Shown here piece after piece: positions 901 to 44,954 of a DNA stretch of 64,000 nucleotides. Below the pieces are notes generated by a model. That model had not been told where the DNA came from. It ran no database searches and worked only from the letters and a program-made list of their open reading frames with translations. The position numbers were made by a program, and so were the translations under genes. Location of the stretch: contig CM060734.1 in the NCBI GenBank assembly GCA_030704615.1, forward strand, positions 7,812,001 through 7,876,000, in the 5' to 3' direction. This DNA is from Takakia lepidozioides. Lineage: Eukaryota; Plantae; Bryophyta. Within the stretch, counting starts at the first letter, position 1. The number at the start of each line of letters is the position of its first letter.

Positions 901-1200
901 AGTGAGCTGTGTGGGCCTGTGCTGGTCTGTGGTGGCCCGTGTTGACCTGTGGATGGCCTGTGCTGACTCGTGGAGGCACTGGTGGACTAAGGACTGGCAT
1001 GTGGTCTGGAAGGCCGAATTTTGAAGCTCGTGGAGGGCGGTTTGAGGAGTATCTTCATGATATTCCCATGGTCATGCAAGTTCAGGTGTAGGCTATGTTA
1101 GGAACTTAGTATTCCAAACCATAAGCCGCAACAGGTTCTCTACCCGGTTACCTTGTGGAGAGGGGGTTAGGGACATGTTCATGACCGGTTGAGTGTCAAC

Positions 1201-3875
1201 ACGGAGGTGCCACTAGTTGCTGGGGACAGTGCCGGTTCGAGCACTAGCGATACTAGTGGGTACACGAGACGAGGTGTGCGGTTTAGGCCACCTTCACCTC
1301 CTGTGTCTTCCACAGAAGGTTCTGATTCGGATTGTGAATCAGGAGGGCTCATACCGGCGGTGCAAGTTGTTTCTTTTCCATTATTGTGGGACACAATGGA
1401 GGAGATGTATGGAGCTACCAAGGGGCCACGAAGGTACTCTGGGGCGGTGGGCACCATTGAGTTGGATGATTTTATCCAAGAGTTTGATAGTTGGTGTGAT
1501 TTGCAGCAAATGCGCAATCCACAACTATTTACGCCGTTCATGGCATGGAAAGGGCTATTTCAGCACCTTGAGAGGCCGCCTATGGATGATTACCATGAGT
1601 TCAGGCGGGGGCATGAGGTTGAGATCGAGGAGTGGAGGATGTACTGGTCACCCGACTATGTCTCCATCACTAGGGGCACTAGAGCCACGAGGGCAGTGGC
1701 TACACCTGCCGCTGCACCGGCAGCTTCAGCAAGCAACAGTGGGACTGGTGGTACAGTAGCTACGACGTCCACCCAAGCCACTACCGCACCAGCACTAGCA
1801 CCCGTGCCTGCCTTCAACCCTGTTGTGGAGTTCTTCGAAGAGTTGAGAGGGAACTACCAAGGGGTGAGGACAGAGAAGTTGCGGAGCTTGCAAGAGTTCC
1901 AACGGAAGCCGACCGAGAGCTTGAGGGAGGCTTTCACTCGCATGAGGCGCTTGATAAATGTAACCCAAGGGGTTACGGAAGCTCAGGCAGTCCAATTATG
2001 GGATATTGGACAAGGAGCTGAGGAGAAGGGTGCGGGATGCAACTCTCCTACAAGCGGCCCAACCCACCTTAGCAAATGTGTTTTTGCTGGTAGAGCGGAT
2101 AGAGCTCAACATGGTGGAGGAACGAGTGGTCATGGTGGGATTTGCTAAGGAGACACCACGGGGTAGTGGTGCTCCTAGCCAACCACTACCTCAACGTGCT
2201 CAAGGCACCAAGGGAGCTCAGGTGAAGCTCAGGGAAGGGCAGAGAGGACCTCAAATGCAGGGGTCTCTCCCTTCATTTGCTGGCCAACAACGGGCGGATG
2301 TGGTGTGCTGGACACGTGGAGGACCCCATGTCAAGAAGGATTGCCCAGAGGGAGGCAAAGGGTCGGCACATGCACAGCCTGCACGGTTGCAGTGTGGGCA
2401 TTGTGGCAAGCACGGGCATGGAGAGGCCCAGTGTTATAGTTTGCATCCTGAGTTGCGCCCAGGCCAGTTCCAAGGGAACAATGGTGGCCGGGGGCGAGGT
2501 GGAGCAGCCCAGAGAGGACGAGGTGGCCAGCCACGAGGTGCAGGCCAAGGGCAAGCTCAACGTGGCCAAGGACGCGGAGGTCAGGGTGTTGACCAAGGCA
2601 TGGCCAACCGGCTTCAGCAGCTAGAGCAGAGGCTCGCTGCCATGGCTACAGCTCAGGTGGTACCGGCTCTAAGGCCGGATGGTCCACCTCCTGCTCCTGA
2701 GGGAGGAGATATGGGAGGCATGGGATTCATGTGTGGAGCAGCACTACCACTAGTGCAGGTGGAGTCTGCTGCAGCCGTGACTCGAGGAGCAGCACGAGTT
2801 CCTGAGCCACGAGGTGCAGAGGTGGAGTTGGATCCACAGCGTGGGGAGGCAAGCCATCAGGCTAGGCTTCCTCAGTCATTCACATTGGTGGAGACAGTGT
2901 CGACGCCATCCATGGCACCTAGTTCTCGCCCGACTGTTACCGAGGCGGAGGTCACTATGCCATTGGGGAGAGCTACACGGGTAGCACCACTACCTAGTGT
3001 TGCCAAGGCTACGGCAGCTAGTGTGCTGCTAGGAGCGGCCACATCTGTGTGCCAGGCTCCATTGTTCTCGGCTACCATGATTGCGATGCCGGGGGTAAGA
3101 CCAGCTGAGGTGTTCAGGCTGGCAGCTACACTCTGTGAGAGTGGGGAGGTTACTTCATCTTCTGCGGAGATAGTGGGAGGTGTAGCGCCGGAGGGATCCT
3201 CGGATTTGAGGGTCAATGGCAAGCTGCAGCTGCCAGGTTGATGGAGCTGCCAGCTAGGCCAGCCATTGAGCGCGCCATGGTGACACCTGGAGTTGTCATG
3301 TTAGACAACCAGGATGGCATTTTCTATTTGAGTGGACCGGCAGGCAAGAGGTACCGGCCACTGCGAGTCTTGTTGGACTCGGGAGCTCAGCCACTGATGC
3401 TGGGCAGAGCTGCTATTGCAGGCTTGGGCCTCACGGAGGCGGATATGGAGCCTTGTCCTTTCTAGATACAGACGTCTCTGGGAGGATCGGAGCAGGCTCG
3501 GGGCATGACACGGCATGAGTTGGCTATCAGACTACGGCCAGATCACCCTACAGATGGCTCAGTGATGCGAGCCAAGGCCATTGTGACAGACGCAGTCTCA
3601 TACGATGTCCTGGTTGGTGGGGCAGTGTTGTACCCCATGGGCTTCACCCTGGATTTTTGGGACGAGTCAGCTTCCTATAGGCCTGCATGGCAGTCAGGGG
3701 AGGGCCGGCGTGCGCAGCTCCCTGTGACGTTCATAGGAGGAGTTGCGGTTGCCCAGCGAGGCAAGATGCCGACACTAGCAGCATTCACAGCGGCAGTGAG
3801 TTGGCCTAGAGAGTTGCTTGAGGGCAATGCTCATTCAGAGGATGTACCACCTCCGGGAGAGCAAGATGACATGAC
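1201..3875 (+). pseudogene. gag: gag + aspartic protease of copy A (frameshifted)
   Basis: ORFs 1189-2148, 2006-3241, 3238-3465 and 3505-4359 join into one frame when compared with B and C. Lesions: 4-nt deletion at ~2000, ~19-nt deletion at ~3215, CAG>TAG at 3463, 5-nt ATGAC duplication at ~3871. Knuckle CGHCGKHGHGEAQC; protease VLLDSGAQP. Confidence 0.88.
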
Positions 3876-5030
3876 ATGTATGGTATGGCGGAGTTGCCTA
3901 CCATGGTTGCTCAGACTCCATTGTGGGGCACGAGCAAGGATTTGCAGCAGGATGCTGATCGACGGGTGCAACAAGCCTGGGTGGAGGCTTTTGTACCGTC
4001 AGGAGAGGAGGAGAGTGTGGGGATTGCACCAGGACCACCTCAATTGTCTCCATTGGACACCATACCTATTGTGTGGCAGTCTCCGGATGAAGGCATTTGT
4101 CTTCTGGACTTGTTTGGCGGGATCAGCACCGGATTGGCTGCTGTGTTACAGGCAGGTGTACGAGTTCGGCGTTACCTGTATGTGGAGAGGGATGAGACTG
4201 CACGACGCGTTTCACTTCGTCATGTTGCTCAGTTGGTGCAGCGGTACCCTGAGTTGTTGTCGGTGTCTGCAATTCGTGGATATCAGCAGGCCTTGCCAGC
4301 AGACATTTCGTTGCTGGGGGCGCAGGATTTGGAGCGGGTTGGCTCCATTGATCTGGTAGTGAATGGTTGGCCCTGCCAAGGGCATTCATCAGCCGGGCAT
4401 GGCAATGGATTGCGAGACTCGAGGTCGGGTCTGTTTTGGGAGATGGTGCGGGTTTTGCGCCACTTGCAGCTTCATCAAGCTGTATCTCCAGCATACATCT
4501 TGGAGAATGTGCCACTGATGGGCGATTCTCGGGCCAGGGTGATGGCCAGTGTGCATCAAGTCCGGTCGTGGCTTGGGTCAGCAGTGTTGCTGGATGCAGC
4601 TACAGTGGGGTCACGGGCTCATCGTCCACGGCTATGGTGGACTAACATGATGCCACCCGCACTGCTCAAGCGTGCATTTGATGGGGTGCAGCGGCCAGCA
4701 TATCTCACAGTGGATAACATTCTGGACACAGGGAGGCAGTCTCAACGTGTGAGACACGATGACCGTTCGCCTTTGGCAGTGGTCAACAAGGTGGGTCAAC
4801 CACAAGCAGCATTACCTACACTGCTCAGCTTCCCAGGATCGCATGCTTTCCGGGATAGTGGACCTGGCCTCCTGTGGGATGCTCAGTTGCAGCAGTTAGT
4901 GGAGCCTAATGCTGACGAGCGTGAGCGGGCAATGGGTTTTACCACTGGTACCACGGCGGTGTCGTCTCTTTCTGAGGCATCACGTCGTCAAGTGTTGGGG
5001 CAAGCAATGGATCTCAATTGCTTGACCTAG
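3876..5030 (+). CDS. DNMT3-like C5 cytosine methyltransferase domain (uninterrupted 384-codon frame inside the element polyprotein)
   Basis: Motifs in linear order: I LLDLFGGISTG, II YVERD, III ADISLL, IV GWPCQ (catalytic PC at 4371-4376), V LFWEMVRVL, VI YILENV, VIII AHRPRLWWTN, IX ERERAMGF, X RRQVLGQAM. Confidence 0.92.
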   Translation: MYGMAELPTMVAQTPLWGTSKDLQQDADRRVQQAWVEAFVPSGEEESVGIAPGPPQLSPLDTIPIVWQSPDEGICLLDLFGGISTGLAAVLQAGVRVRRYLYVERDETARRVSLRHVAQLVQRYPELLSVSAIRGYQQALPADISLLGAQDLERVGSIDLVVNGWPCQGHSSAGHGNGLRDSRSGLFWEMVRVLRHLQLHQAVSPAYILENVPLMGDSRARVMASVHQVRSWLGSAVLLDAATVGSRAHRPRLWWTNMMPPALLKRAFDGVQRPAYLTVDNILDTGRQSQRVRHDDRSPLAVVNKVGQPQAALPTLLSFPGSHAFRDSGPGLLWDAQLQQLVEPNADERERAMGFTTGTTAVSSLSEASRRQVLGQAMDLNCLT

Positions 5031-5340
5031 GATTATCAGCTTGGCTCTAGCTGAGCAACGCAGAGTGCGGAATACACTTCCCTCAATGGTCTCTCTGCCT
5101 ACCGAGACGGTACAGGCAGTGAGTGGGGGCGAGCATATGAGGACCACGGGGTGCATGCATCCATGGCACACGTGGGAGGTGCTCGAGGTTCAGAGGGAGT
5201 TGGCAGCCAAGGCGGCTGTGATGGATGAGGTTGGGGATTCTTCTCGAGTTGAGGAGGTCCTCAAGGATGAGATGATGGGGCAGGATGATGCCTTGTCATT
5301 GACTGAGCAGGTAGGGAGTACTGCTCAAGAGGTTGCAGCA

Positions 5341-5349
5341 TAGCAACCA
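5341..5349 (+). other. Putative stop-codon readthrough site TAG CAA CCA between ORF1 (gag-PR-DNMT) and in-frame RT
   Basis: Matches UAG-CAR-YYA. Same site in B (9805-9797, TAG CAA CCA) and C (42718-42726, TAA CAA CCA). The frame after the stop is open into RT in A and B. Confidence 0.72.
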
Positions 5350-6390
5350 CGGGACGCGTCCTCTACCTCTAAGCCCACTGGACTTAAGGTTGTAGTTACG
5401 GAGGACAATTGGGAGCCTGACATTGGACCCATTGTCACCGGAGGAGAGAGACGACATATACGGCGGTTCCTGAGGGCTTACAGGAATTGCTTTGCCTTCA
5501 GTTTGAAGGACTTGGGAGCACTGAAGGGTCAAGAGATCCGTATTGAGTTGGCCACTGACACGCCAATCTTTCGGAGACCCTATAGATACAGTGACATGGA
5601 GAGGTCTTTGATTCAGATGAGGACTCAAGATCTCTGGGAGGCAGGTTTGGTGGAGCTCTCTGGTGGAGAGTATGCTTCAGCCACAGTGATGCCAGCCAAG
5701 AAGGATGTCTATGGCAATTGGACGGAGAGACGTATGTGCGGTGATTACCGGCCTGTAAATCGTCAGACCAAGTCCGATAAGTATGCCATGCCAACACCAG
5801 AGGAGATCTTTGATGCCATCGGGCATGCTAAGGCCTTTAGCACTTTGGATTTACGATCCAGATATCACCAGTTGCCAATCAAGGAGGCGGACAAGCAGAA
5901 GACGGCATTCTGGGGGATCAATGAGCACGGCAAGGATTGCCTATATCAGTGGCGGTTCTTACCATTTGGGCTTAAGAATGCTCATGCAGAGTTTCAGAGA
6001 GTCATGGATAGGATTCTAGCAGGGGTGGACTTTGCTCGGTGCTACATAGATGACATCATCATCTTTAGTGTTACGATGGAGGAGCATGTGAGACACCTTC
6101 AGGTGGTATTGGAGCGCTTGAGAGCGCACGGATTGAAGTTGCATCCGGGGAAGTGCAAGTTTTTCCACAACCAGATTGAGTATCTGGGTCACATGATATA
6201 TCCTGGAGGATTGGGGGTACAGCAGACTAAGGTAGAGGCCATTGCACAAATTCCACGCCCCACGGATGTGAGCCGAGTTCGAGCTTTCATGGGGTTGGCA
6301 AACTATTATAGACGGTTTGTCAAGGGATTTAGTACCATTGCAAACGCTCTAACCAAGCTGACCAAGGTGGACCAGGAGTGGCAGTGGGAG
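5344..6390 (+). pseudogene. pol: Reverse transcriptase of copy A (Ty3/Gypsy-type), truncated before RNase H
   Basis: RMCGDYRPVN, FSTLDLRSRYHQ, LPFGLKNA, CYIDDII, YLGH, FMGLANYYRRFV. Confidence 0.93.
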
Positions 6391-7184
6391 CATGAAGGGC
6401 AAGCCTGGCAGCTCTGGAAAAGGGAAGAGGTCCATGGTTTCATTGTCAAAGGTGGAATTGTACCTGATGTGATTCTGAACAATGCCCTCGTGGACATGTA
6501 CGCCAAATGTGGGGGCATCAAGGGCAAGCCTGCCAGCTCTGGAAAATGGAAGATCGGGTCTATGGTTTCATTGTCAAAGCTTGCATTGTACGTGATTGTG
6601 ATTTTGGACAATGCCCTCGTGGACATGTATGCCAAACATGGGAGCATCAATGGCAAGCCTGCCAGCTCTGGAAAAGGTTCCGATCAGGTCCATGGTTTCA
6701 TTGTCAAAGCTAGAATTGTACCTGACTGTGATTCTGGACAATGCCCTCGTGGACATGTATGCCAAATGTGGGAGCATCAAGGGCAAGCCTGGCAGCTCTG
6801 GAAAAGGGAAGAGGTCCATGGTTTCATTTGTCAAAGCTGGAATTATACCTGATGTGATTCTGGACAATGCCCTCATGGACATGTATGCCAAATGTGTCAG
6901 CATGAAGGGCAAACCTGGCAGTTCTGGAAAAGGGAAGAGGTCCATGGTTTCATTGTCAAAGGTGGAATTGTACCTGATGTGATTCTGAACAATGCCCTCG
7001 TGGACATGTACGCCAAATGTGGGAGCATCAAGGGCAAGCTTGCCAGCTCTGGAAAAGGGAAGATCAGGTCCATGGTTTCATTGTCAAAGCTGGAATTGTA
7101 CCTGATTGTGATTCTGGACAGTGCCCTCGTGGACATGTATGCCAAATGTGCGAGCATCAAGGATGCGAAGGCAGTTTTCCAACA
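6384..7184 (+). repeat. Tandem array of six 125-130-bp units derived from a PLS-class PPR gene fragment
   Basis: Units start at ~6384, 6509, 6638, 6768, 6894 and 7019. Each encodes LEKGKEVHGFIVKAGIVPDVILDNALVDMYAKCGSIK-like text with frameshifts. The last unit continues into DAKAVF. Confidence 0.9.
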
Positions 7185-8241
7185 CTATGGCTCTTGGAGT
7201 GATTTTGACATGTACCAGTAGAGGGGAGAAAGTGGGGCCCTCAGCAGACGAGTTGAAAAGCACTAGTTAAAAAACACTGGTGCTTGATAGGGTGTGGCAA
7301 AATTCAGGCTGGGGCGATCATTGATATCCCGGACGTAGTGTAAAAAAGACGGTTGTGAGTGAAGTACACCCGTCAAAAAAAAACCCTGCTGTCTCAAAAA
7401 GGGAGCCAGTCACAAAGAGCAAGGCACTTTGTCCAAGCTTCTCGACATCAAGCAACAATGTGGACAGGGAGGTAGTCATTGGGAACAATTTTTGTAAGGT
7501 GGTGAAGAAAGCCTTGTCTGAGGATCACTGGATATTTCTCTAGTACGGTTGGACTAGTAGAGATTGAAATTCGTGCTCAGCTCAGCTTCAGACTGTCTCA
7601 TTGTGAGGGGCCTAGGGTTGTTGTGCACATGCGCCTACGCCCTCTCTGCTGCGTGTCCCGAACTGCATGTCAAGGTTGACTGGACAGAAATGGGATTGAC
7701 ATTTTTGGCGCTCACAAATCTCTGAGACGACAAGAGATAGTTTTATCTATAGCTTCTCAAAGCAATTGTTGTACATTGTTGATTATAGTGTGACATTCTC
7801 ATAACGATATTGTCGTCAGCTGCATGAGCAGTGCATCTTTTTGGATTGTTGGTTCCCTGCCCTTGCAGCAAACTATGAGTGCCGCCGCACCCCAAAATGT
7901 CCCAACTCCTCATGGGCATGGCGTACCAATCGCACTCGTTGTGTTGGATGAGGCACAATCCTCACTCGTCCATCCTCCCACACCCAGAGTAGGTGAGTCC
8001 CTTCCCACTTGAACCTCTTGGCTCGTTATAGGATCCGATCTCTTTCCTTAGCAGTCACACTGGCTGTTGTCTCTCATGTACGAAGATAGGCCAACACTGC
8101 TGCATCTTCATGCACATCCTTAGCACCACCAAGCTCCTCACTGATCTCCGGATCGTCATGCACACCATCTACTTGACCAATGCTATGGGATGGACCAGCT
8201 TGAGCTCCCATTGCTAGGATGCACAAAAAGGCAGATGTATG

Positions 8242-9802
8242 TCATCCTGGCACCATCTCCTCATATGTCTCACCATGCCACCAAACTCTAGTATCATCAT
8301 GCTCTGGATTACGACTCAATCCATCTGCATCCCGATTGACAATACCGGCTCGATGCACCACCTGGAAGTCGTACTCTTGAAGCATAAGTGCCCACCATGC
8401 AAGCTTCCCTGTAAACTTGTCTGACTCTATCAACCACTTCAATGGTTGGTGATCTGTGACAAGGGTGAAGAGATTGACATAGAGGTAGCATCTGAAATGT
8501 GCCACTGCCCATACCGCAGCTAGACACTCCCCTTCATATGAACTATACTTCGCCTCGGCATCATTGTTCGAGTGGCTAGCATATGCCACTACGAACTCTC
8601 TTCCCTCATCATCCACCTGTGTGAGCACTGCTCCAATCCCCAACATACTCCAATCCGTATGTAGCTGAAAAGACCGCCCCCGAATACACCGCCTCAGAAT
8701 AGGTGCAGAAGTCAATCGAGCCTTGAGTTCCTCAAAGGCTTCCTCCTGTTCCTCCTCCCACTGCCACTCCTGACCCACCTTGGTCAACTTGGTAAGAGCC
8801 TTTACAATGCTGCTAAATCCTTTGACAAACCGTCGATAGTAGTTTGCCAACCCCATGAAAGCAGGAACTATGCTAACATCTATGGGGCGTGGAATGCGTG
8901 GAATGGCCTCCACCTTCGTCTTTTGAACACCCAATCCTCCAGGGTATATCATGTGGCCCAGATACTCAATCTGGTTGTGGAAGAACTTGCACTTCCCAGG
9001 GTGCAATTTCAACCCGTGCGTTCTGAAGCACTCAAACATTACCTGAAGGTGTCTCTCATGCTCCTCAACCGTAGCACTAAAGACGATGATGCCATCAATG
9101 TAGCACCGGGCGAAGTCTAGCCCCGCGAGAATCCTATCCATGACCCTCTGAAACTCTGCAGGAGCATTCTTCAGCCCAAACGGTAAGAACCGCCATTGGT
9201 ACAAGCAATCCTTCCCATATTGGTCAATCCCCCAGAATGCCGTCTTTTGCTTATCATCCTTTTTTGATTGGCAACTGGTGGTAACCGGATCGCAAGTCCA
9301 ATGTGCTAAACACCTTTGCATGCCCAATGGCATCAAAGATCTCCTCTGGAGTTGGCATGACATATCTATCGGACTTAGTCTGACGGCTCACAGGACGATA
9401 GTCCCCATACATCCTTCTTTCTGTCTAATTGCCATAGATATCCTTCTTAGCTGGCATCACCGTTGCCGAGGCATACTCCCCGCCTGACAACTCCACAAAT
9501 CCAGCTTCGAACAACTCCATAGTCCGTGACTGGATCAATAACCTCTCCATGTCACTATACCGGTAGGGCCTTCGAAAGATTGGCGTGTCACTTGCCAAAT
9601 AAATACGAATCTCCTGACCCTTCAAACTCCCCAAATCCTTCAAACCAAAGGCAAAGCAATTTCTATAAGCCCTTAGAAATCGCTGGATCCTCCATCTCTC
9701 TCCTCCGGTGACTGTAGGTCCAACATCTGGTTCCCAATTGTCCTCAGTGACTGCAACCTTGGGTACACCAGGCTTGGAGGTAGGAGATGAATCCTTTGGT
9801 TG
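8242..9802 (-). pseudogene. pol: RT-RNase H of copy B
   Basis: LPFGLKNAPAEFQ, CYIDG (degenerate YIDD), RNase H LHTDWS...EGECLA...LVTDHQPL...NRDADGLSR; stops and frameshifts present. Confidence 0.92.
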
Positions 9803-10199
9803 CTAGATAGCAACCTCTTGGGCCTTGTCTGCCCAATCTGACTGTGGCGTAGCCTCCACTTGCTCCGCCATAGCCACCTTGAGAACATCCTCTGAGCAAG
9901 AAACATTCTCAACCTCTTCAAAAACATTGGCCACTTTTGCTTCTAACTGATCCTTAGTGTATGGCTCTCCCCACTCTTCATATTGCTGCTTGAGAGATCC
10001 AAGGGCTATCTCTTTGTGCATCTCATCCCACATCTGCCATGGGTGTTTGCAACCCACGATCTTGTGCTCGCCCCCACTCACTGCCTCAACCGTCCCGGTT
10101 GGCAGGGAGGATGCACCATCCAATGGGAGTGTAGAAGTAGCCATCAATGCTTGCAATCTCCGTTGCTCAACCATGCACAAGCCAATTATCCATGTCAAG

Positions 10200-10970
10200 C
10201 AATTTAGATCCATTGCCTAACCCAACACTTGGCATCGTGATGCCTCTGACAGAGCTGTAGTGCCCGTGGCAAACCCCATTGCCCGCTCGCGCTCATCCGC
10301 ATTGGGCTCCACCAATTGCTGTAGCACACTGTCCCAAATCAACCCAAGACCATTGTCTCGAAAAGCATGAGACGAGGGAAAGCTCATGAGCGTAGGCAAG
10401 GCTGTACGTGGCTGCCCCACTCGATTGACCACTGCTAGAGGTGGACAGTCATCATGTCGCACCCTCTGTGGTTGCCTCCCTTGGTCCAAAATGCCCTCAA
10501 CCGTGAGATTGGGTGGCCGTTGAATGGAATCATATGCTCTCTTGAGCAGCTCTGGTGGTGCAAGATTGGTCCACCACAATCGAGGTCGATGCGCACGTGA
10601 TCCCACCGCTGCTGCATCCAATAGCACCGGTGATCCAATCCAAGACTACACCTGATGCACACTGGCCATAACCCTGGCCTGAGAGTCCCCCATAAGAGGA
10701 ACATTCTCCAAGATATAGGCTAGAGGTTGCACTTGCCTTGTCTGCAAGTCACGCAACACTCTCAACATCTCCCAAAACAAATGTGATCGTGCATCATGCA
10801 AGCCATTCCCATGACCTGCGGGAGAGTGTCATTGGCAAGGCCATCCAACTATCACCAAATCAATGGCACCATGCCGGTCCAAATCATCCGCCCCCAACAA
10901 GGTAAATGTCTGTTGGCAAGGCCTTTTGATTCCCTTGAATTGCTGAGAGAGGCAACAACTTAGAATACCG
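10200..10970 (-). pseudogene. Partial C5-MTase domain of copy B (motifs I-II removed by an ~780-bp deletion from the protease)
   Basis: GWPCQ*, YILENV, RAHRPRLWWTN, ERERAMGF and QVLG*AMDL are present. Junction at ~10975 joins LEPCP directly to the region after motif II. Confidence 0.88.
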
Positions 10971-10974
10971 GTGT

Positions 10975-13228
10975 GTGAGGGCAAGGCTCCAAATCCGCCT
11001 CTGTAAGGCCCAAGCCTGTAATTGCTGCTCTTCCCAACATCAATGGTTGTGCTCCTAAGTCCAACAAGACTCGCAATGGCCTATACCTCCCCCGGGCTGG
11101 GCCACCCAACTGAAACACACCATCCTGATTGTCCACCAGGACTACCCCAGGAGTCACCATACTGCGCTCAATGGCTGGCCTAGCTGGCAATTCCTGCAAC
11201 CTTGCAGCTGCCGCTTGCCATGGCGCAGCTATGGCTGTCTTCACCCTTGAATCCAGGGCATTCATGCATTGCATCTTATCTGCTATCCCCGGAGATAGTG
11301 CCGATGCATCACCACTCTCACAGAGTGCAGCTGCCAGTCTAAACACTGCAGCTGGCCGCATCCCCGACATTGCAATTGTCGTGGCAGAAAACAATGAAGC
11401 TTGGCAAATTGCCGTAGCCGCCCCCAACAATGTACTGGCTGCACCTTGCTTTGCAGTACCACCCACTGGCATTTCTTGAGCCATACCAACTCTCCACAAT
11501 GGCACTCGTGGTTCTACCTCTAACACACTTGGGCGAGCGGGTGCCATCGATGGCATAGTTGGCACTGTCTCAGCCAATGTGAAAGATTGTGGAAGCCTTG
11601 TCTACCGACTTGTTTCCCCTCTTTGTGGATCAAAATCCACATCCGCTCCTCTTGGCTCAGGAGCACGCGTTGCTGCAGAGTCCACATGCAATGGTCCTGC
11701 AAGTACGGCTCCACACATGAAGCCCATACCAATCTGGTCTTCCCTAGGCATAGGAGGTTGTGCAGGTGGGGCTTGAACCTCAGGCCTTAGAGCTGGCGCA
11801 ACATGAGTAGTGGCCATGGTAGCAAGACGTTGCTCTAGCTGGGCAACCTATCTACCATGTCTTGGTCATGACCTTGACTGTGACCCTGTGCTCCTTGGTT
11901 TTGGTTACGACCTCCACCACGACCTCTGCCTCCTCTACCTCTCTAGACTACATTGCCTCGTCCTCGGCCACCATTGTTCCCTTGGAACTGGCCTGGCCGT
12001 AGCTCAGGATGCAAGTCATAACAATGAGCCTCTTCATGCCCACATTGTAGTTGTGTAGGCTGTGCCTGTGCCGGCCCTTTGCCTCTCTCCGGGCAATCTC
12101 TCTTAACATGGGGTCCTCCACAATCCCAACATGTCACACCCGACTGTTGTTGGCCTGAGAATGAAGGAAGTGACCTTTGCAATTGAGATCCTCTCGGCCC
12201 TTTCCTGGCTTCGCCTGAACCCCCTTGTTGCCTTGAGCACGTTGGGGTAGTGGTTGTTGTTGGCTAGGAGCCCCACTTCGTTGTGTCTCCTTACCAAATC
12301 CCACCATGACCACTCGCTCCTCCACCATATTGAGCTCTATCCGCTCTGCCAGCAAAAACACATTTGCTAAGGTGGGTTGGGCCACTTGTAGGAGAGTTGC
12401 ATCCCGCACCCTTCTCCTCAGCTCTTTGTCCAATATCCCATACCAGATTTGGACTGCCTGAGCTTCTGTAACCCCTTGGGTTACATTTATCAAGCGCCTC
12501 ATGCGAGTGTAAGCCTCCCTTAAACTCTCGGTAGGCTTTCGTTGGAACTCTTGCAAGCTCCGCAATTTCCCCGTCCTTATCCCCTGGTTGTTTCTCCTTA
12601 ACTCCTCAAAGAACTCCACAACTGGGTTAAAGGCAGGCACGGGTGTTGGTGCTGCAGCAGGAGCTTGGGTGGATTTCCCAGCTCCTATTCCACTTGACGT
12701 CCCACTGCTGCTTGCAGAAGCTGCCGGTGTAGCTGCCAGTGTCACCACTGCCCTTGTGCCTCTAGTGATGGAGACATAGTCAGGTGACCAATACACCCGC
12801 CATTCCTCAATCTCCACCTCATGTCCCCGCCTAAACTCATGGTAATCATCCATGGGCGGCCCCTCAAGGTGCTGAAACAGCCCCTTCCATGCCATAAAAG
12901 GCGTAAACAGTTGTGGATTGCGCATCTGCTGCAAATCACACCAACTGTCAACCTCTTGTATGAAGTCATCAAGCTCGATGGTGCCCACAACTCCAGAGTA
13001 CCTACGTGGCCCCTTGGTAGCTCCGTACATCTCCTCCATCGTGTCCCACAACAATGGCACGGAAATGACTTGCACCCTCGGCGAGAATCCTCCTGACTCC
13101 GAGTCTGAACCTTCCTCAGAAGACACTGAAGGTGAAGGTGGCCTAAACCACACACCTCGTCTTGTATACCCACTAGTATCGCTGGTGCTCGTATCGGCAC
13201 TCTCCTCAGCAACTGGTGGCACCTCCGT
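10975..13228 (-). pseudogene. gag: gag + partial protease of copy B
   Basis: ORFs 12134-13222, 11943-12182, 11602-11817 and 10960-11577 are homologous to copy A gag/PR; CWDCGGPHVKRDC knuckle. Confidence 0.9.
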
Positions 13229-14014
13229 GATGAAAACTCACAACCACACCTGTTGTAAACCTGTTTCTAATCCCCATTTCCACAAGGTAACCGGGTAGAG
13301 AACCTGTTGCGGCTTATGGCTTAGACTACTAGGTTCGTAACATAAACCTGCACCTGTATCCACCGCAAGCACTCCTATGGTCTGCTGGTCATCAACCCAG
13401 CCTCACCATAAGAGAAACAATGATGGTCTGACTGGTCATCACCCCAGTCTCACCACCGACAGCATGCTCTAGGATTGGCCGGTGATAAAATCCAGACCAA
13501 CCTCCTATGAAAACAAGCGCCCACACAAAACTAACATGGTGCATAGTCAAGCATGCATGTGTGGAGGGGATCCAAACACAAGAAAATCAATACAACAACT
13601 CCCCCACACCAAAAACACTCCACAGTGTCGCTCCTGCAATAACACCCCAGCCCAAACCCGGACTGACTCTTGCCTCCATCTACGGAAAGGTTTTGGCCTA
13701 CAGAGAGGGTGGAAGACTACAAGGAAGAGAGACTAAAGCAATTCCTATTACAGCATGCTCTCATCCCACTACCCTATCTCCACACTCTCTTGCTTGAACA
13801 ATAGACAAGACTACCTTTCAAGGGTCTCTCAAATAACTCTCCAGGAGCCCTCAAGAATTTGTCTCTCAAACAATCTCACTAAGGCTCCCAATCCTTGCAC
13901 GATGGGACTCCAAAACAGTACACCAAGGCCCCAAGAGCCTGCCAAAACTTAGCCCTCGAGGACCCCAATAGTCCCTCACACAAGTCGTCAAAGACTCCTC
14001 AAGGTCGCCAAATA

Positions 14015-14345
14015 TTGGCCTCCAAGGACCCCAAATAGTCCTCCAAAGAACTCCAAATGGTCCTCCAATGACCCCAAACAGTCCTCCAGGGATTCCCAAT
14101 GGTCCTCCAAATAGTCCTCCAAGGACTCCCAATGGTCCTCCAAACAGTCCTCCAAGGACTCCAAACAGTTCTCCAAGGACTCCCAATGGTCCTCCAAGGA
14201 CCCCAAACAGTCCTCCAAAGACTCCCAATGGTCCTCCAAACAGTCCTCCAAGGACCCCAAACAGTCCTCCAAGGACTCCAAATGGTCCTCCAAATAGTCC
14301 TCCAAGGACTCCCAATGGTCCTCCAAACAGTCCTCCAAGGACTCC
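14015..14345 (-). repeat. Minisatellite (~33-bp unit, GGTCCTCCAAACAGTCCTCCAAGGACTCCCAAT on +) in the leader of copy B
   Basis: Direct tandem repeats visible; same position in the element as the copy A array. Confidence 0.92.
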
Positions 14346-15966
14346 TCTATGTCACTATGTTCCCAATGGATTCCCAATAAACTCCCAAAGTTCCCAAAGT
14401 TCCATAAGAATATTCCAAAGAATATGCCATAATATTCCCCCAGTATTCCCCTGGGCCTATACGTATTCCCCTTGTATTCCCCTTAGGAATAGCCATTTCC
14501 CCCTTGGAATAGCCATTTCCCCCTCATAGAGTAGTTCATTTCCCCATAGGGTTTAGCCATTCCCCCCTAGGCTTTAGCCACTTCCCCCTCTATTTCCTTG
14601 AGGTTTAGCCTTACCAAGCTAGGGTTTGTGCTCCTTGGGGCTCCATGCTTAACCCCCTCAAGCATCCATGAATTCTATGGGGTACCAAGGCAAATTACCT
14701 TGATCTTCTTCACCTTAAGCTACTCAAGTTTGTCTCCAACTCAACTAGCAATGCATTGGCCACACAACAAGCTCAATTTCTCATTGGAACTCAAAATCAA
14801 CTTGTACCTCCTTTGGCAAGCCACCAAGCCTTGTCTCCTCCCAAGCCTTGGTCATTCAAGCTCCATTTACTTGCTAGCTCAAGAGCCACTCCTCTCAAGC
14901 TTGAAATTGCAAAGCTCAAGCCAAAAGCATGCTCCACACATGCATCACCTCATACACAAGAGAATCAACTTGCTTCCTTTACCTTCTAGCTCTCCTCAAG
15001 CTTGAAATTGGAAGCCACACTTGGGAAGCATGCTCCACATAAGCATCACTTGCTTGATCAACCATCCACCACAAAACTTAAGCCAAAAGGGAATGAATAT
15101 GTGAGCTTCACCTTCCCCTTCAAACCTCTTGAGCTTCCTAATGCTCTCCAAGTGTTTGCCCTTGTTGTCTTCAAGCCCAAGCCTATGTAGCTCCTTGGCT
15201 TCTCTTCCACAACATCCACACTTGAGCTTGCTTAACCCTAGATTGATAGTGACATGAGTACTAACAATCATTTAGTTGCTCTCCACAAGCCATGGCACAT
15301 ACCATTGACTCCATAATGCATAGAAATGATTATCAAACCCTAGAATCCATGCTTCCACACACACAAGACTTCCCTCTTGCAATCCTTGCAAATCTTGTGG
15401 CAACAAGCTCCTTCTTGAGCTCTCCAACACCTCCTTAGGGCAAAGCAATATCTCTCAAAGCCCTAACACCACAAGGATTTTCCTTTGCAATATATGCAAC
15501 ACCTTGCAACACAAGAGCTATCTTCCCAAGCTCTTCAATACACAAGTGCTAAACTAACCCTTACACTCTGCACTCACAAGCATAAGGTGATCTTCTTGTA
15601 GTGATAATGAAAGTGAACACAAGGGAAACACTCCACTCATGAATCCACTCAATCACATAAATTAAGTCAAGCCAAGGGCACCTTTGCTAAATGAATCCAC
15701 CCTACAAAGCCCTCACCACACTCTCACTCAATACCTAGAGCTATGGAGGTGGGAGAGGCTCATGGAGGCTCAACTATAAGAAGATGAGCCCTCCTCAACG
15801 CTCACAAGGGGAAAACCCATCCCCATGTCCCAAGTGAGGTTTGACACCTCACTTGGCATGTGAGACCATTGAAGTCCCAACACACAAAATACAAATATAA
15901 ATATCCAAAATGTCCTAGTTAACTAGAAGTAGGTAATTCTAGTTAACCATGACTAAAACTATGACA

Positions 15967-17810
15967 AAGTAGTAACCCCGAGAATGGTGCAAGCTTGTTG
16001 GTGACCAAAAACTAGTGAGTAAGTGAGCGAGCCGGAAAGCGACCAAGGAGTGGGGAGCTATTCCGGACTGCCATCTACCAAAGAGAATTTCCACTAGGCC
16101 TAAATTGGTGGAGGGTCTGGTGGGAGAGTAAAGGGGGACCGTTATGTCCCGGTGTGCAGCCGAAGCTCCAAGTTGGCCCGGCGGCCAGGTTGGGAGTTAG
16201 GCGCACGCATCAAAACGAATAACTATGATTTGAAGGGGAACTTACCGAAGTGAGGTGCGCGACACTTGATATCAGAGCTTAGAGTTCAGTACGCGATCGT
16301 CCTTGGGTTTGGCCTCATCATGGGGTCGGGCAAGCCAAAGCGAAAGCGGAACGGCCCGAAAGATGATTATCCTGGTGAGCCCGATGGGGGCGACGTGTCA
16401 CCAAAGCAGCCATTTGAGGAAGCGATGCATGCTTTTGAAAGCGAGGCCGCTCAAGAACGGGAGAAATCTTAGGAGTCGGAGCCTGAGGGATCCCTGAGAG
16501 CTCCGACAGACCAACAGATGCCTCCTCTGCCAGCAGCCTTTTGGAAGGGTTGTTGGCGCAGTTTGGCGGGACGTTGAAAGACATGTTGAGGGCGGCTAAT
16601 GCCACTTCCACTAAGGCAAAGTTTAAGGTGAAGCCTAAGGAACCCGACACCTTCGAGGGCGTCCGAAATCGGAAGGCACTCAACATCTGGCTCTTGGAGC
16701 TAGAGCAGTACTTCCGGGCGGCCAAGTTGAGTGACGAGGATCGGGTGGAAGTGGCTCCCACCTATTTAAGGGGCTATGCTCAACAATGGTGGCAGAAACG
16801 CCTTCACGACCGAGGTCCAAACCCGGAAACCTTGAACTGGAGTGGGTTCAAGGAACTGATGAAGAGACAGTTTGTGCCCCTCAACGCGTCCTGGCTCGCC
16901 CGGGACAAGATGAGGAATTTGAAGCAAACAGATGATATTCGGGGATATGTTCAGGCTTTCAATGTGCTGTTGCTCGAAGTTGCGGACATGGCAGAACCAG
17001 AAATGGTCTTCAACTTTGTGGCGGGACTGGCCCCATGGGCCAGACGGAAGTTGGAGGAGAAGCCACCTAAGACTTTGAATGAGGCAATTGAGAGGGCTGA
17101 ATGCTTCTCAGATGTCCCTAGGGGCGAAAGACAAGGCCGTACGGAGCTGAACCACAAGAAGACCTGGCGGGAGGGTGACTCCTTTCGACCCGAAAAGAAG
17201 TGGGATAGGCCACGCGATGACAATGGCACGTGGAAATCAAAAGGAGGGCCTTCACACGCCAAGACGACACCCGGTGCTCTGAAAGGAAAATCAGGTGCGA
17301 CGTCTTATGGCGGACAAAAGGCGACCTTCGATGGAGTGTGCTTTAATTGCGGGAAGCCCGGGCATATGGCTAAGAAGTGCGCAAAGCCCCAACAATTGAA
17401 CATGACTCGGGCGACCACAGAGCTGTCGGAAGAGTCCATCAGCCGCTTGGTGGAAACGGTGGTCGCCAAGAATTGCAAGGTAGGCAACTACTTTTGTGAG
17501 TTGTATCAGGAAATTGGCGCCCTACGTAAAGGAAGTCAGTTTTTGTTCGTGGATGGGATAATTTCCGGAACTACCATGTCGTTGTTGGTGGACACATGAG
17601 TGTCGCACTCCTTCATGACACCGACAACGGCATGAAAGCTGGGGCTCCCGACAATTGACGTGGGGGCATCTATTGAGGTGCGTTCATCCAAAGAAGAACC
17701 ACAATTGGCGACGAGGTTGATAATCGATGTTCTTCTTCAACTGGGGAGTTGGGAGAGACGTGAGAACTTCACCATTTGCGAGTTCGGGTTGATCACGGTC
17801 TCCCACATGC
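15967..17810 (+). mobile_element. Conventional Ty3/Gypsy LTR retrotransposon fragment (partial 5' LTR, tRNA-iMet PBS, gag, start of protease), interrupted by copy B
   Basis: LTR end ...GACA at 16264; PBS TGATATCAGAGC at 16267-16278 (1 mismatch to TGGTATCAGAGC); gag with CFNCGKPGHMAKKC; protease LLVDT* at ~17590. Confidence 0.85.
16320..17599 (+). pseudogene. gag: gag (Retrotrans_gag-like + CCHC knuckle) of the conventional Gypsy fragment
   Basis: KPKEPDTFEG...WLLELEQYF...YLRGYAQQWW...LKQTDDIRGYVQAF; stop at 16470. Confidence 0.85.
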
Positions 17811-20779: not shown

Positions 20780-22830
20780 CCATTGATGACTGGGGTCAGA
20801 AAAGTATCCATTCCACAGCTTCTCCTCGTCTCTGTTACCAGTTTCTGGATACTTCCTTGTTGTCACATGTTGGCCGTATCATGTCAGTCACTCCAAACTA
20901 TCAAAGGTTCACTCAACCAGCTAACTTGCAGAATTCAACACGAAAATTTAGGTATGACTCTGATAACAGGGGAAACAGGCTGAAATGTGTTGAAGGTGCC
21001 TTCATTAACAGTGCCTTGTTCTATCAATTGTGCCGCTGCCGCTTATGTTTCCAGTTGACCATCTACCCACGCAGATTTCATGTAGCTATTGATCCACAGG
21101 GAATCAGAAGTAATCTTATGTTTGAAACCCGGTCCTCTTGGATGAATCTGGACCTCTATCCCTAGTCTTTCAGCTCACACTGACGGCGTGAAGTTCTTCC
21201 AGCAAATACCCCAACCCTAATGATGAGAGGGCAAAACAGACTGCCAAAAGGTTGAAGAAGGGTTTTGTCCTTGATCTTGTGTCATGACGCATGGAGATTT
21301 AACCGACCATCAACCCAAAATTCAACCTCGTGTGTGCTACTTGTGTCTATAGTCAGGTAATGTCGGATTGGTCGACTGGACAAGTGTTCATTCCACCGCT
21401 TCTCCTCATTCTGTTATCTATTTTTGGATACTTTCCTGCTGACACATCGGCAAAAACTTATCAAGTCACCCCAAACCACCACAGATCCACCCAACGAGCT
21501 AATTTACAACATTCAATATGCATCTCAGGGCCGAGTCTGATGAGAGGGCAAAACAGGCTGAAATAGGTGGAAGAAGAAGGTGCCCTCACCACATTGTCCA
21601 CGGACATATTCAAACCACTGCTAGCATTACAACGTCATCCATTAATCTCTTCCATATTGTCTCTGCTCTTGGTCCTGCAACTTTTCATTGCAAACTCACG
21701 ATAGTAGAATAGATGCGAAATGATAAGGTTGTGCCTCCTAAACCCTTCAGGCTACTGGAAGTGGGCACTTTTTCATTCAAGGTTACAGTACGTACTCTAT
21801 AAATCACTTACCTTTACACCATAAGTTGGTTCTAGTCATACAACAACTTTCTTCATTTAGTTGATCAATACCTCATCGAGCTACTGCTGGTCAGATGAGA
21901 CTAGAGGGAAATGAAATCATTATCCTCATCAGGATGCCACATATTTTGGGTTTCATACACTCTCAAGCTTGCTGGACTCATGCTGAGACATGTACAGTCC
22001 AGATCTTGGGGTAAGGAAATACCATGTCCAGATCTTGGGAAACGGGAAAGAAGTGGGCTGCTGTTCAGACAACACTAAAGTGGATCATGCACGTGCTAAG
22101 CATTTCAACACCTGCAAGCTGACTCTCCCAAAACCTTGTAAACATCAGGAAGCATACCAAATCATGGTACTAACAGGAGCCAAGAGCCCAGACTAGGTGA
22201 TTCTGACAAAGTGGGCAAGAGAAACATACACTTCTGAGATGGAGAACATCCTATCATAATACACTAAAACTGTCAACCATAATCATGGTTGACATCTCCC
22301 ACATACTTCCACCCAACTAACCCAGCTTACTTGCAGAATTCAACATGGAAATTTAGGGCCGATTCTGATAAGAGGGAAAAACAGGGTGAAATGTGTTGAC
22401 GAAGGTGCCTTGATTACCAGTGCCTGATTTTATCAGTTGTGTCGCTGCTGCTGCGGCATCCAGTTGACCATCTACCCATGCAGGTTTCTTGTAGCTATTG
22501 CTCCACATGGAATCATAAGTAATCTTGTGCTTGAAATCTGGCCCTCTTGGATGAATCTGGACCCACTCTCTATCCCTGCTCCTTTAGCTATCTCTGCCTC
22601 TGCACAAATTATGCACACATCCTTGCCTTGCTCCTAGCAGCTGACAATGACAGCCTAGATTTGTTCCAGCAAACACCCTAACCCTACTTATCACACTAGT
22701 TCATATGTTGACTTGCGCTTCCAACAGGCCTTCACTTTTTTGCACCAAAGAGCTAACTTGCAGAATTCAACCTGAAAATTTAGGGACGACTCTGATAACA
22801 CGGAAAACAGGCTGAAATGTGTTAAAGAAG
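20780..22830. repeat. Dispersed degenerate duplicated modules, possibly remnants of a PPR-associated gene on the minus strand
   Basis: ACTTGCAGAATTCAAC..AAATTTAGG..GA.TCTGATAA...AAACAGG.TGAAATGTGTT at ~20924, ~22329 and ~22756, with weaker copies at ~21500 and ~21220. Confidence 0.6.
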
Positions 22831-22834
22831 GTGC

Positions 22835-23870
22835 TCATAGGTCTCCAAAGCCTCCATCCCGCGTCCTTGCTGTGCATATCCTGCAATCATCGCACTCCAC
22901 GACACCACATCTCGTTCAGCCATACTATTGAACACTCCCTTTGCATCCTCGATGCACCCACATTTTTGCATACATGTCCACAAGAGTACTGTTCAGAATG
23001 ACATCGGGTACAATTCCAGCTCTGACAAGTCACCATGGACCTCTTTGCCCTTTTCCAGGGCTGCCAGGCTTGCACATGCATTGCAAATGCCATCAAACGT
23101 GATGTGGTCGGGCTTCACCCCTTCCGCCATCATTTGATCATAGGTCTCCAAAGCCTCATTCCCGCGGCCTTGTTGTGCATACCCCGCAAGCATCGTGTTC
23201 CACGACACCACATCTCGTTCAGCCATACTGTTGAAAACTCCCTTCGCATCCTCGATACACCCACATTTCCCATACATGTCCACGAGTGTATTGTTCAGAA
23301 TGATGTCGGGTACAATTCCAGCTCTGATGATGTCACCTTTGCCCTTTTCCAGGGTTGCCAGGCTTGTACACGCATTGCATATACAAACGAACGTGACCGG
23401 GTCTGGCTTTATCCCTTCCCACATCGTTTGCTCATAGGTCTCCAATGCCTCCATCCCACATCCATGCTGGGGATTATCCAGCGATCATCACACTCCAGAA
23501 CACGACATTTCGTTCAGCCATATTCTCAAACACTCCATTTGTATCCTCAATACTGCCACATTTGGCATACATGTCCCCAAGGGTATTGTCCAGAATGACA
23601 TCGGGTACAATTCCAAATTTGACAATGGCACCATGGACCTTTTACCCTTTTCTAGGGCTGCCATGCCCGCACACGCATTGCAAACACAACCCGGTCCGGC
23701 TTCACCCCTTCCCTCATTATTTGCTCATACGTCTCCGAAGCCTCTATACCATGCCCCTGATGTGCATATCCTTGCCCTTCCTGTATCATTTGCTCAAGAA
23801 TAGGTCTCAAAGCCTCTATCCCACGCCCCTGTATTGCATATCATGCGATCATGGCGTTCCATGATACAAG
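22835..23870 (-). pseudogene. PLS-class pentatricopeptide-repeat pseudogene
   Basis: RDVVSWNTMLAGYAQQGRGNEALETYDQM..EGVKPDHITF..ICNACASLAALEKGKEVH..NTLVDMYGKCGCIEDAKGVF; multiple frameshifts. Confidence 0.88.
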
Positions 23871-29119: not shown

Positions 29120-29770
29120 ACAGGGGTCGGTGGCCCTGGAAATTTTATTGAATGATTATTGAAGGGAGAAAAATTAAAACCCGTAAGTTTGCCATAAGGT
29201 TTGAACTCACGGCGGGCCGTGCTGGATAACTCTGGAACCATAACAGAAGAGATCTCTTAACGGTAAGCGACACTATCGACGTTAGGGAGGACAGAAGCCT
29301 CGGTAGAACCCAGCAAGACCAAAGTAATGCTGTAAACGGGGTGTTGTTTACCCCCTACTGACCATTAGAATGACACGGAGACGACGACGAGTGCCCTAGG
29401 ATTGAGGGGAGGCTGCTATCGCGCTAAACGGAGAAGCAGTGGATCCGGTAGGATTGGACACAGGGAGCAGGAAATGAAGGGGCCAGCGAGCGATCAAGCT
29501 TGGAGCAATTAGAGTGGAGGGAGGAGAGAATCATTAGGAGAGCCGGGAGCCTATCTATGAAACTGAAGCCGCATTGCTGAGGCCGATCGAACATGCTTCC
29601 AATTGACCTCGGTTCTTTCAAACTCCGGGGATGCCGAAGAGGTAGCCTTTGTGCCCATTCCAGCAGGAGGGGATTGAATCTGCCCATACACAGGTGAGTC
29701 CATTAACGCTGTAAATAATCCCATGCTTGCCCCAGGATGCTCCGAAGGCATAGAGGAGGGAGGGCTCACG

Positions 29771-32700: not shown

Positions 32701-33922
32701 GCTCAGAAATGGATTGAATGGCCCTACGCTGCTTCAACTTCTAGAAGAAGTATTTAGACATTTTTTCTCCCTTAGTGGACCAGTTAATGCCTGCTTGCAT
32801 TTTCATTTTCTTTTCTTTCAGAAGATGGAACTGGTCCAGGTTGAATCGCGCCTGCAGATAGGTCCAGAAGGTGTGGTCATCACATGAACGAGCCTCTATC
32901 TTCTTTTGGCATATCCCAAGACATTTTTTGAGCGCTTGAGCTTTTCTTTTTTGAGAAGCTGTGATTAGCAGACTAAGGTTTTGGCTTTCTTTGCATGCCG
33001 CCGCTAGCTTGGCTTGAAATTTGGCGATTGGACAAGGGATGAGGTTGCCAGATGACAGCCAGACCGCTTTAAGGCCTTTTACAAAGGAGGGAATCTTAAG
33101 GTGGGCAGAATTAAGTCTGAATACTCTTCTCTCCCTAGGGTGGGTTTTTGGGAGTTTGAGGGTTGCAAAAATAAGGGCATGATCAAAACCAAGGGGGGTA
33201 GGGTCCTGGGGGCAAGAGAAGAGGGCAGGAGATAGGGAGAGGGAGGAGTAGAAGCGATCTAATCTAGCCATGCTAAGATCATTCACTTCCCTGTTATTTG
33301 TCCAGGTAAAGAATGGGCAAGAGCTGGCAGGGTGTGGCGGGGGCCTGTCTACTTCAGCGAGGCTGTGAGTCTGGGTTAGAAGGTGCCAAGATTGCTCTTC
33401 CTCACGGCTGAGTTGAAGCGAGCCTCTACCTTTCTCGTCGCATTCATTTTCTACCATGTTAAAATCACCCGCCATGACCCATCTGTGGATATCATGGTGG
33501 GAGGACATGAGGTGGCAGATTTTGCTCCAAAGGGCTGCTCTGAGGGCTGGTTCATTCGGGGCATAGATATTGATTAGACCAATTGGATCAGGGACATTAG
33601 GGAGAAGAAGAGAGCAAAACTGCACTCTCCCAGATTACCATACTTCATCTTTGAGGAGAAACTGCTTGATAGAGGGGGAGAGGAGGATGGTTGTACCTCC
33701 CTTGGAGCCTTTGTGAGAGGGTTTCCATAGGGCTAAGGATTTAGGCCAGAGATGATTAGAGAGGTTTTGGATTTTACTATTAGTGAGCTTGTGTTCCTGA
33801 AGAAAGACAATGGATTGGGAGGGGATGAGGGGGGTTAGCTAGGCAGACAATTCTATTTTTTTGAGTGCCATTTGGTCTCACCCCAGGCCTTGAATGTTCC
33901 AAGAAGATAAGCTAACCTGCAT
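29771..33922 (-). pseudogene. LINE ORF2: APE endonuclease + reverse transcriptase + C-terminal zinc finger
   Basis: MQVSLSSWNIQG start, GDFN, RLDRFY, FDH; KAPGLDG, NYRPITLLN, DFEKAFD, QG.PLAPFLF, FIDD; CQCC..ESMEHCFLRC; frameshifts and stops. Confidence 0.92.
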
Positions 33923-44952: not shown

Positions 44953-44954
44953 GC

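Follow-up and report, generated by a model that had tools for sequence, protein, structure and literature searches.

Organization of the Takakia locus

The window analysed here, 64,000 nucleotides of Takakia lepidozioides contig CM060734.1 (positions 7,812,001 to 7,876,000, forward strand), contains three copies, designated A, B and C, of a retrotransposon encoding a DNMT3-like C5 cytosine methyltransferase. In copy A, a gag-like region with zinc-knuckle-like segments and an aspartic protease spans 1171–3699 (+) and is disrupted by frameshifts and a stop; the protease, marked by an LLDSGA motif, covers about 3349–3699. The methyltransferase follows at 4089–5027 (+), within a frame of 386 codons free of stops (3870–5030, +) that ends early at 5028–5030, and presents motifs I–X in linear order (LFGGISTG, GWPCQ, ENV, AHRPRLWWTN, ERERAMGF and RRQVLG). 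A TAG stop followed by CAACCA (5341–5349, +), predicted to be leaky, closes the Gag-protease-methyltransferase frame. The reverse transcriptase (RT; 5551–6390, +) is truncated at ∼6390 by tandem PPR-like fragments. Upstream of gag, the sequence reads as a tandem repeat array (1–950, +), which is probably part of the 5′ untranslated region.

Copy B (7857–13775, −) belongs to a second subfamily with 71–81% DNA identity to A. It has lost both ends and retains gag, half of the protease, a partial methyltransferase (10190–10979, −), RT, RNase H and the start of the integrase region, with the conserved stop, again TAG plus CAACCA, at 9797–9805 (−). A deletion fuses the protease to the middle of the methyltransferase, so that motifs I and II are gone; what is left carries one frame break and three stops.

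Copy C (35932–45568, +) is preserved over its full extent, from TG to CA, and is inserted in a LINE-like element (29700–35931 and 45573–47400, −; RVT_1, zf-RVT and a weak zf-CCHC match). Its full-length methyltransferase (41468–42406, +) has three stops, and C is the copy in which protease, methyltransferase and linker are seen in one frame. The stop site, TAA plus CAACCA, lies at 42718–42726 (+). RT and RNase H are deleted shortly after it, with the join at about 42874–42913; a DDE integrase with H2C2 zinc finger and core (43359–44030, +; PF17921, 5.4e-12; PF00665, 1.8e-10) and, at the end of the integrase frame, a PHD finger (44412–44546, +; PF00628, 1e-8) complete the copy. By tblastn, amino-acid identity of the methyltransferase to that of A is 74% over the last 252 residues for B and 87% over 385 residues for C.

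All three copies are dead elements. The original prediction had placed the enzyme between protease and RT in all of them, called the frame of A intact and read the full motif series in A and C and a partial one in B. The position is direct in A and B, but C has its RT deleted. Copy A is open across the domain, but its protease is stopped at 3463–3465 and its frame is broken near 3866 and 5029, the latter break truncating the frame within the last helix of motif X; neither break is shared by other copies, as represented by contigs of three public runs. The complete motif series stands in A and C but not in the deleted B. The description of B as partial and of C as interrupted by stops was accurate, and PF00145 does match all three copies (with stops read as X in B and C); in A the match has an E value of 1.9e-12 and 47.7 bits, against a curated cut-off of 22. 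The whole-protein cut-off of the NCBIfam dcm model, 100.65, is not reached by the domain, which scores 43.7.

Several neighbouring features were noted. The PPR coding fragments that cut off copy A (6384–7200, +) are arranged in units of ∼129 bp; a related array (PF13041) lies at 22830–23770 (−), and both are deeply covered by contigs of the host run and may travel in another mobile element. A different short unit is arrayed upstream of gag in each copy, at the same relative position (1–950, ∼13960–14350 on the minus strand, and ∼37200–37480). An unrelated, ordinary Gypsy element at 16260–17600 (+) matches Retrotrans_gag, Ty3_capsid and zf-CCHC, has a higher CpG observed/expected ratio (0.78), and carries a tRNA-Met-like primer site near 16266.

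A predicted DNMT3-type enzyme under purifying selection

Among solved structures, the domain is closest in sequence to DNMT3A (2e-11), followed by DNMT3B, DRM-type and bacterial enzymes. A profile built from 90 relatives scores DNMT3A at 98 bits and DNMT3B at 88, compared with 51–61 for DRM-type enzymes, 41 for M.HhaI and 25–27 for the DNMT2-type tRNA enzymes. In Foldseek, the top matches to the AlphaFold model (mean pLDDT 96.8) over the full length are DNMT3A/B/C (∼316 columns, TM about 0.75), and a search of the ESM Atlas returned only C5 methyltransferase clusters. By family score and motifs, the domain is thus predicted to be a C5 cytosine methyltransferase, and by motif order, profile and modelled fold it is assigned to the unrearranged DNMT3 type rather than to DRM, DNMT1/CMT, DNMT2 or bacterial enzymes. 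This supports the earlier view that it resembles DNMT3 and not the circularly permuted DRM enzymes.

Linear motif order and fold are shared with animal DNMT3A/B and with the host DNMT3 of non-flowering plants (PpDNMT3a/b, described in the accessible text of PMC6453930). The domain differs from these in lacking DUF3444, PWWP and ADD, in carrying extra segments after motif III and within the target-recognition region, and in showing 20–26% identity to animal DNMT3. The segment that we take to align with the CpG-reading loop of DNMT3A is not conserved, and the target context therefore cannot be predicted from it.

Catalytic residues are well preserved: the catalytic Cys is present in 87 of the 89 aligned relatives with a residue at that place, the motif VI Glu in 87/90 and both motif VIII Arg in 85/90. 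This full DNA C5 catalytic set, together with the poor scores of the DNMT2-type tRNA enzymes relative to DNMT3A, argues against the idea that the element retains the domain for RNA methylation or as a particle component that binds nucleic acid. That reading would suit a domain made together with Gag, upstream of the stop, and the inactivity on yeast DNA of the related Klebsormidium domain, as given in the accessible text of PMC5890265, but we regard it as highly improbable.

For copy A against copy B, the methyltransferase has a dN/dS of 0.10 over 246 codons and RT one of 0.095; the protease half stands at 0.20 and the linker ahead of RT at 0.40 (Nei-Gojobori, codons paired by tblastn; dS is 1.77, near saturation, and the value for A versus C, 0.34, also takes in decay that followed insertion). 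For the methyltransferases of L038 and L042, a distant pair of intact relatives, the ratio is 0.11. The enzyme thus appears to be maintained as strongly as RT, and the original proposal of purifying selection on the domain with diverging linkers is borne out, the ratio between subfamilies being far from 1. That the three window copies are all broken could suggest passive cargo, with a piece of a host DNMT3 picked up a single time and since carried without selection, or else an assembly error. This is refuted by the conservation and selection results: the position of the domain is shared with three land-plant genera and Closterium, and its dN/dS is low. In addition, the domain is evenly covered by contigs in independent public runs, is intronless and has no DUF3444 match in the Pfam scans. 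We conclude that it is almost certainly a selected DNMT3-type enzyme belonging to the element.

Base composition of the copies carries no sign of self-methylation, because their CpG depletion (observed/expected 0.45–0.52) does not exceed the depletion in the window (0.46) or in the LINE-like element (0.37–0.54). Neither CpG nor CHG depletion sets the element apart.

Element organization and a conserved stop before RT

The domain order Gag-protease-methyltransferase-stop-RT-RNase H-integrase-PHD was pieced together from copies A, B and C. Protease Pfam matches were found in relatives, and the Ty3/Gypsy order (gag, protease, RT, RNase H, DDE integrase) is complete in the relatives L038, L042 and L134; this order and the short target duplication identify the element as Ty3/Gypsy. 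The Gag-protease frame, the PHD finger, the permuted terminal repeats described below and the published precedent in Klebsormidium had all escaped the original prediction.

A stop between linker and RT is present in A, B and C, which places the methyltransferase in the Gag-protease frame and not in the RT frame. The region before RT was compared in 52 sequences (49 metagenome loci and the three window copies); a stop lies within 12 codons of the site in A in 49 of them (32 TAG, 15 TAA and 2 TGA). CAR follows in 46 of these 49, and the full CARYYA, the leaky-stop context of tobacco mosaic virus, in 9. In 36 of the 49 the stop is followed by CAACCC, in most cases with an in-frame ATG next, and this context prevails in a moss-like subfamily. 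Reinitiation therefore rivals readthrough in that subfamily; the window copies have no in-frame ATG after the stop. L038 and L134 are open except for the conserved stop (1369 or at least 1162 codons, then 1047), and some more distant relatives (e.g., P0162 and P0406) keep methyltransferase and RT in one frame. Lying ahead of the conserved stop, the methyltransferase is likely made at Gag levels, and this placement predicts enzyme amounts on the scale of the capsid.

Distribution and phylogeny

Named homologues come from Calypogeia fissa, Marchantia polymorpha, M. paleacea, Riccia sorocarpa, three Sphagnum species and Closterium, and in proteins assigned by name to three land-plant genera and to Closterium the methyltransferase occupies the same place. 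Among the matches listed (120 of 219, all 76, and 106), most of which are unnamed, there is no name of a seed plant and none of Klebsormidium. At E < 1e-30 the relatives form at least 245 clusters at 50% identity. The Marchantia proteins, ∼1250–1280 residues long, correspond to Gag-protease-methyltransferase and end ∼87 residues past the domain; copy A is 79% identical to them in the N-terminal part of gag and about 60% in the protease. The family is also very abundant in its host, as ∼71,000 contigs of host run X1 fit the element.

Among 77 long relatives, the methyltransferase lies after RT/RNase H or directly before the integrase in 67, after the protease or before RT, as in the window, in 7, and is unplaced in 3; a PHD finger is present in 42. 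Quick IQ-TREE phylogenies, with SH-aLRT support only, were computed from chosen rows (68 methyltransferase and 63 RT sequences of ∼535 proteins). The methyltransferase tree groups the window copies with liverwort and moss sequences (support 100), outside a bryophyte subgroup (98 for methyltransferase, 92 for RT), and separates the type with the enzyme after RNase H as a clade of its own (99); its references are only one insect DNMT3 and three phage-contig enzymes, whose long branches meet. The two trees agree in placing the window copies beside the liverwort-moss group. This sequence-based picture fits vertical descent in land plants and would also accommodate an old horizontal transfer.

A recent bacterial origin is not supported. 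Methyltransferase searches returned five weak, partial matches to phage contigs and two matches among prokaryote genomes. One of these two is an entire element on a contig of 9.3 kb, which probably represents eukaryotic contamination of a metagenome bin. In viral contigs, a palindrome scan gave 48 matches, none with any element domain, and an RT search gave no loci.

Some database entries deserve separate mention. L134, P0019 and P0186 carry bacterial labels (cyanobacterial and other bins) and are probably eukaryotic contigs in metagenome bins. P0192, of 1053 residues, combines a PHD finger, PCIF1_WW (adenine-methyltransferase-type) and a C5 methyltransferase with no match to RT, RNase H or integrase; it is possibly part of a dual-methyltransferase element or a domesticated form. 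Run X5, labelled with another organism, covers 3291–5562 of the window with a single 2.3-kb contig, ∼99% alike, that holds the whole methyltransferase and has cloning-vector-like ends. One RNA run under another organism label contributed a single read, off the element, and has no bearing either way.

Comparison with known methyltransferase-bearing retrotransposons

The closest described system is KnitGypsy-Dnmt3 of the alga Klebsormidium nitens, in which intronless DNMT3-type domains reside in a Gypsy polyprotein with Ka/Ks <0.2 and DIRS-like repeats (accessible text of PMC5890265). The Takakia family shares the intronless, unrearranged domain, its place in a Gypsy polyprotein, the purifying selection and the A-coding-B-A-B layout. 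It differs from the system described there in its land-plant host, in its very high copy number and in its conserved stop, DNMT and RT of KnitGypsy-Dnmt3 being in one frame, although readthrough of the stop would still yield one polyprotein. The feature is thus a land-plant variant of the published Klebsormidium kind, and the relatives found here extend this kind to Marchantia, Calypogeia, Sphagnum and Closterium. The conserved stop before RT and the A-coding-B-GC-A-B ends with a 4-bp duplication are new.

The accessible text of PMC5890265 mentions neither a PHD finger, a self-priming site, a palindromic junction nor a target duplication, and does not mention Marchantia, Physcomitrella or Selaginella; later papers of the same group, as far as their text is accessible, speak only of 'streptophytes'. 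No description of land-plant members was found in the literature searched, which covered few subscription journals and included the accessible parts of PMC11982613, PMC6317226, PMC12885004, PMC9516144 and PMC10952607. The REXdb plant Gypsy survey, in the text available, has no mention of PHD and no methyltransferase domain.

Other systems are more distant. SymbioDIRS-Dnmt3 is likewise a retrotransposon-borne DNMT3-type domain with split repeats, but is carried by a tyrosine recombinase DIRS element, an independent capture according to the accessible text of PMC5890265, and not by a DDE-integrase Gypsy. It is the only tested active case in that text: its isolated domains methylate CG de novo in yeast, whereas the Klebsormidium domain gave no methylation there, a result that the authors call inconclusive (PMC5890265). 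EpiLTR and DAM-LTR elements also combine an LTR element with DNA methyltransferases and a chromatin reader, but their enzymes are a cytosine methyltransferase related to DNMT4 and an adenine methyltransferase, and their reader is a chromodomain; the accessible preprint text treats the streptophyte Gypsy-DNMT3 as a separate, earlier case (bioRxiv 10.64898/2026.05.21.726589).

Permuted terminal repeats and self-priming

Copy C begins with TGTC, ends with GACA, is flanked by a 4-bp target duplication (TGGA, 35928–35931 and 45569–45572) and has the layout A1-coding-B1-GC-A2-B2. Repeat A1 (35932–36248, +) ends in CA and is 95.6% identical to A2 (44955–45269, +). B1 (44816–44952, +) runs from TG to GACA, and B2 (45270–45568, +), which adjoins A2 end to end and also ends in GACA, contains an internal short-repeat expansion. 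At the B1/A2 junction lies the palindrome GACA-GC-TGTC (44949–44958), composed of the letters of the two inserted ends. Summed contig depth of host run X1, which is not a copy number, is 10^4–10^6 inside copy C and below 900 in the flanking bins.

Directly after A1, a predicted primer-binding site (36248–36260, +) is the exact complement of a predicted self-primer and likely transcript start within A1 (36084–36096, +). The match is 13 nt long; among 2000 internal windows drawn at random, no match was as long as 11 nt, and folding of the region gives z = −5.4. A short purine-rich tract, the predicted plus-strand primer (44803–44815, +), immediately precedes B1 and is a clear G-run in relatives. 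Self-priming complements, with different letters each time, were also found in L046 (17 nt), L038 (16), L134 (13), L026 (11) and L027 (10); L058 has its best match (11 nt) at another position, and no match at a testable place was obtained for L042 or L064. Tf1 and Tcn1 resemble this arrangement in a primer-binding site right after the LTR, a complement of at least 11 bases inside the LTR and no tRNA primer, but have ordinary LTRs at both inserted ends and, in Tcn1, chromodomains (accessible text of PMC7175516 and PMC6317226). In the window element, the inserted ends lie inside the LTR defined by reverse transcription, and a PHD finger ends the integrase.

The A-coding-B-A-B layout recurs in L046 and L058, each with a 4-bp duplication of its own. 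Target duplications are exact in C and in five of the seven loci checked, with one mismatch in the other two; the NCGN target preference of Phygy was not seen in 8 target sites. The palindrome is intact in C, L027, L032, L042, L046, L064 and L134 and mutated in L030, L058 and L073; its carriers span 42–70% methyltransferase identity and both domain orders. The A2|B2 join reads CA-GT-TG in L030, L032, L058 and L073, as expected from the joining of two RT-defined ends, and is degenerate in copy C. The self-priming site, the purine tract and the end-to-end join together suggest that B+A is the LTR of reverse transcription. Two complete direct LTRs are absent from the inserted ends, and the RT-defined repeat is instead permuted.

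In an alternative, PAT/Ngaro-like scheme the RNA would extend into B2 and the internal B-A junction would splint both ends, with no standard two-LTR reverse transcription. The repeat layout is the same as in PAT/Ngaro, a likeness noted for KnitGypsy-Dnmt3 in the accessible text of PMC5890265; a circle-junction model is described for DIRS in that of PMC7192593; and the A2|B2 join does not vary between relatives, as though inherited. We nevertheless hold this scheme to be improbable: the primer-binding site after A1 and the purine tract before B1 stand where standard B+A reverse transcription needs both, and a DDE integrase and 4-bp duplications are present, with no tyrosine recombinase match in the element strands, unlike the tyrosine recombinase elements of PAT/Ngaro DIRS order.

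Inserted ends that lie within a conserved palindrome inside the LTR fit integration from a circle, and the element probably integrates by way of this palindrome, from DNA that is circular or joined at its ends. Two counts in the moss-like loci (83–88% identical to a Sphagnum protein) stand against the circle. A circle cut at random should also yield the opposite permutation, which was seen in 0 of 17 5′ ends (two duplicate pairs). In addition, 11 rows stop at B and continue into host sequence, two pairs looking like one insertion, while six loci have the full B-GC-A tail. The tail-less forms could come from one-LTR circles, cuts at both palindromes, later recombination or assembly collapse, origins among which short-read contigs such as these do not discriminate.

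The missing permutation also bears on a restriction-modification-like role, in which methylation near GACA-GC-TGTC would shield internal or genomic palindromes or decide which palindrome of the circle is opened. In the window, L032, L042, L064 and L134, the B side has a CG adjoining the cut (CRCGACA), the palindrome includes CAG/CTG, and all palindrome elements examined carry the methyltransferase. These elements were found through the methyltransferase, however, and form a biased sample; the missing permutation is explicable by collapse of the 339-bp A repeats lying 113 bp apart; and tail-less forms are common, so that any protection would be leaky. We consider such a role quite improbable.

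A model for the methyltransferase in the element life cycle

We propose that the DNMT3-like enzyme of this high-copy land-plant Gypsy methylates the element's own cDNA in the particle, before a likely insertion from a circle, and put the probability of this reading at roughly 0.6. The stop followed by CAR would occasionally be read through, giving methyltransferase at Gag levels and less RT and integrase, and the protease would free the methyltransferase within the particle. RT would self-prime after repeat A and use the purine tract before repeat B, producing linear DNA with B+GC+A at both ends. The ends would then join, and the integrase would open the palindrome GACA-GC-TGTC in the 5′ repeat for insertion, while the PHD finger probably recognizes chromatin at the target site. 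The methyltransferase would mark the cDNA, with CG as the most likely context if it behaves like the Symbiodinium DIRS enzymes that were tested, and the marked cDNA would look like methylated host DNA on arrival.

The PHD finger also invites a different view, in which the enzyme acts on chromatin rather than cDNA, either on inserted copies or on the DNA around them, so as to silence the element or to mark targets, possibly guided by the PHD in the manner of the ADD-methyltransferase pair of animal DNMT3. Methyltransferase and PHD finger occur together in both domain orders; self-limitation was raised as an option by de Mendoza et al. (accessible text of PMC5890265), and host plant DNMT3 acts on heterochromatin (accessible text of PMC6453930). 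But the PHD lies beyond the stop, ∼1000 residues away, so that most methyltransferase molecules would be without it, and PHD fingers also occur in a Chlamydomonas Gypsy element with no methyltransferase among its listed domains. Action on chromatin is possible, if unlikely, and methylation of cDNA in the particle remains our preferred reading.

For the integration step of the cDNA model, the permuted ends imply that a DDE integrase works at a site within the LTR and probably on a circular form; for retroviruses, this route is generally seen as a side path. Cleavage of a circle-junction palindrome has a counterpart in vitro in HIV-1 integrase (accessible text of PMC1905944). A more far-reaching version, that an old and widespread Gypsy clade of the green lineage integrates obligatorily from a circle, its integrase cutting the LTR palindrome in a restriction-like manner under the control or protection of a DNMT3 present at capsid levels, is a long shot. 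If true, it would pair natural circle-junction integration with the element's own modification enzyme and be testable in Marchantia polymorpha.

The role of retrotransposon-borne cytosine methyltransferases has been open since 2018, partly because the earlier hosts are hard to work with. In Marchantia polymorpha a relative 73–75% identical is present in many copies (an 18-member cluster), and the role of the enzyme can therefore be asked in a model plant. At least 15 of the 18 members are named Marchantia and are annotated as hypothetical or generic proteins; gene counts in non-seed plants can mistake such copies for DNA methyltransferases of the host. Similarly, LTR finders that require two terminal LTRs would miss the family or set its bounds wrongly. 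No account of the permuted self-priming layout was found in the literature searched, as far as its text was accessible and with few subscription journals covered.

Four of the 15 listed Marchantia members of the cluster (P0280, P0281, P0282 and P0285) lie on the V (male) chromosome according to their gene names.
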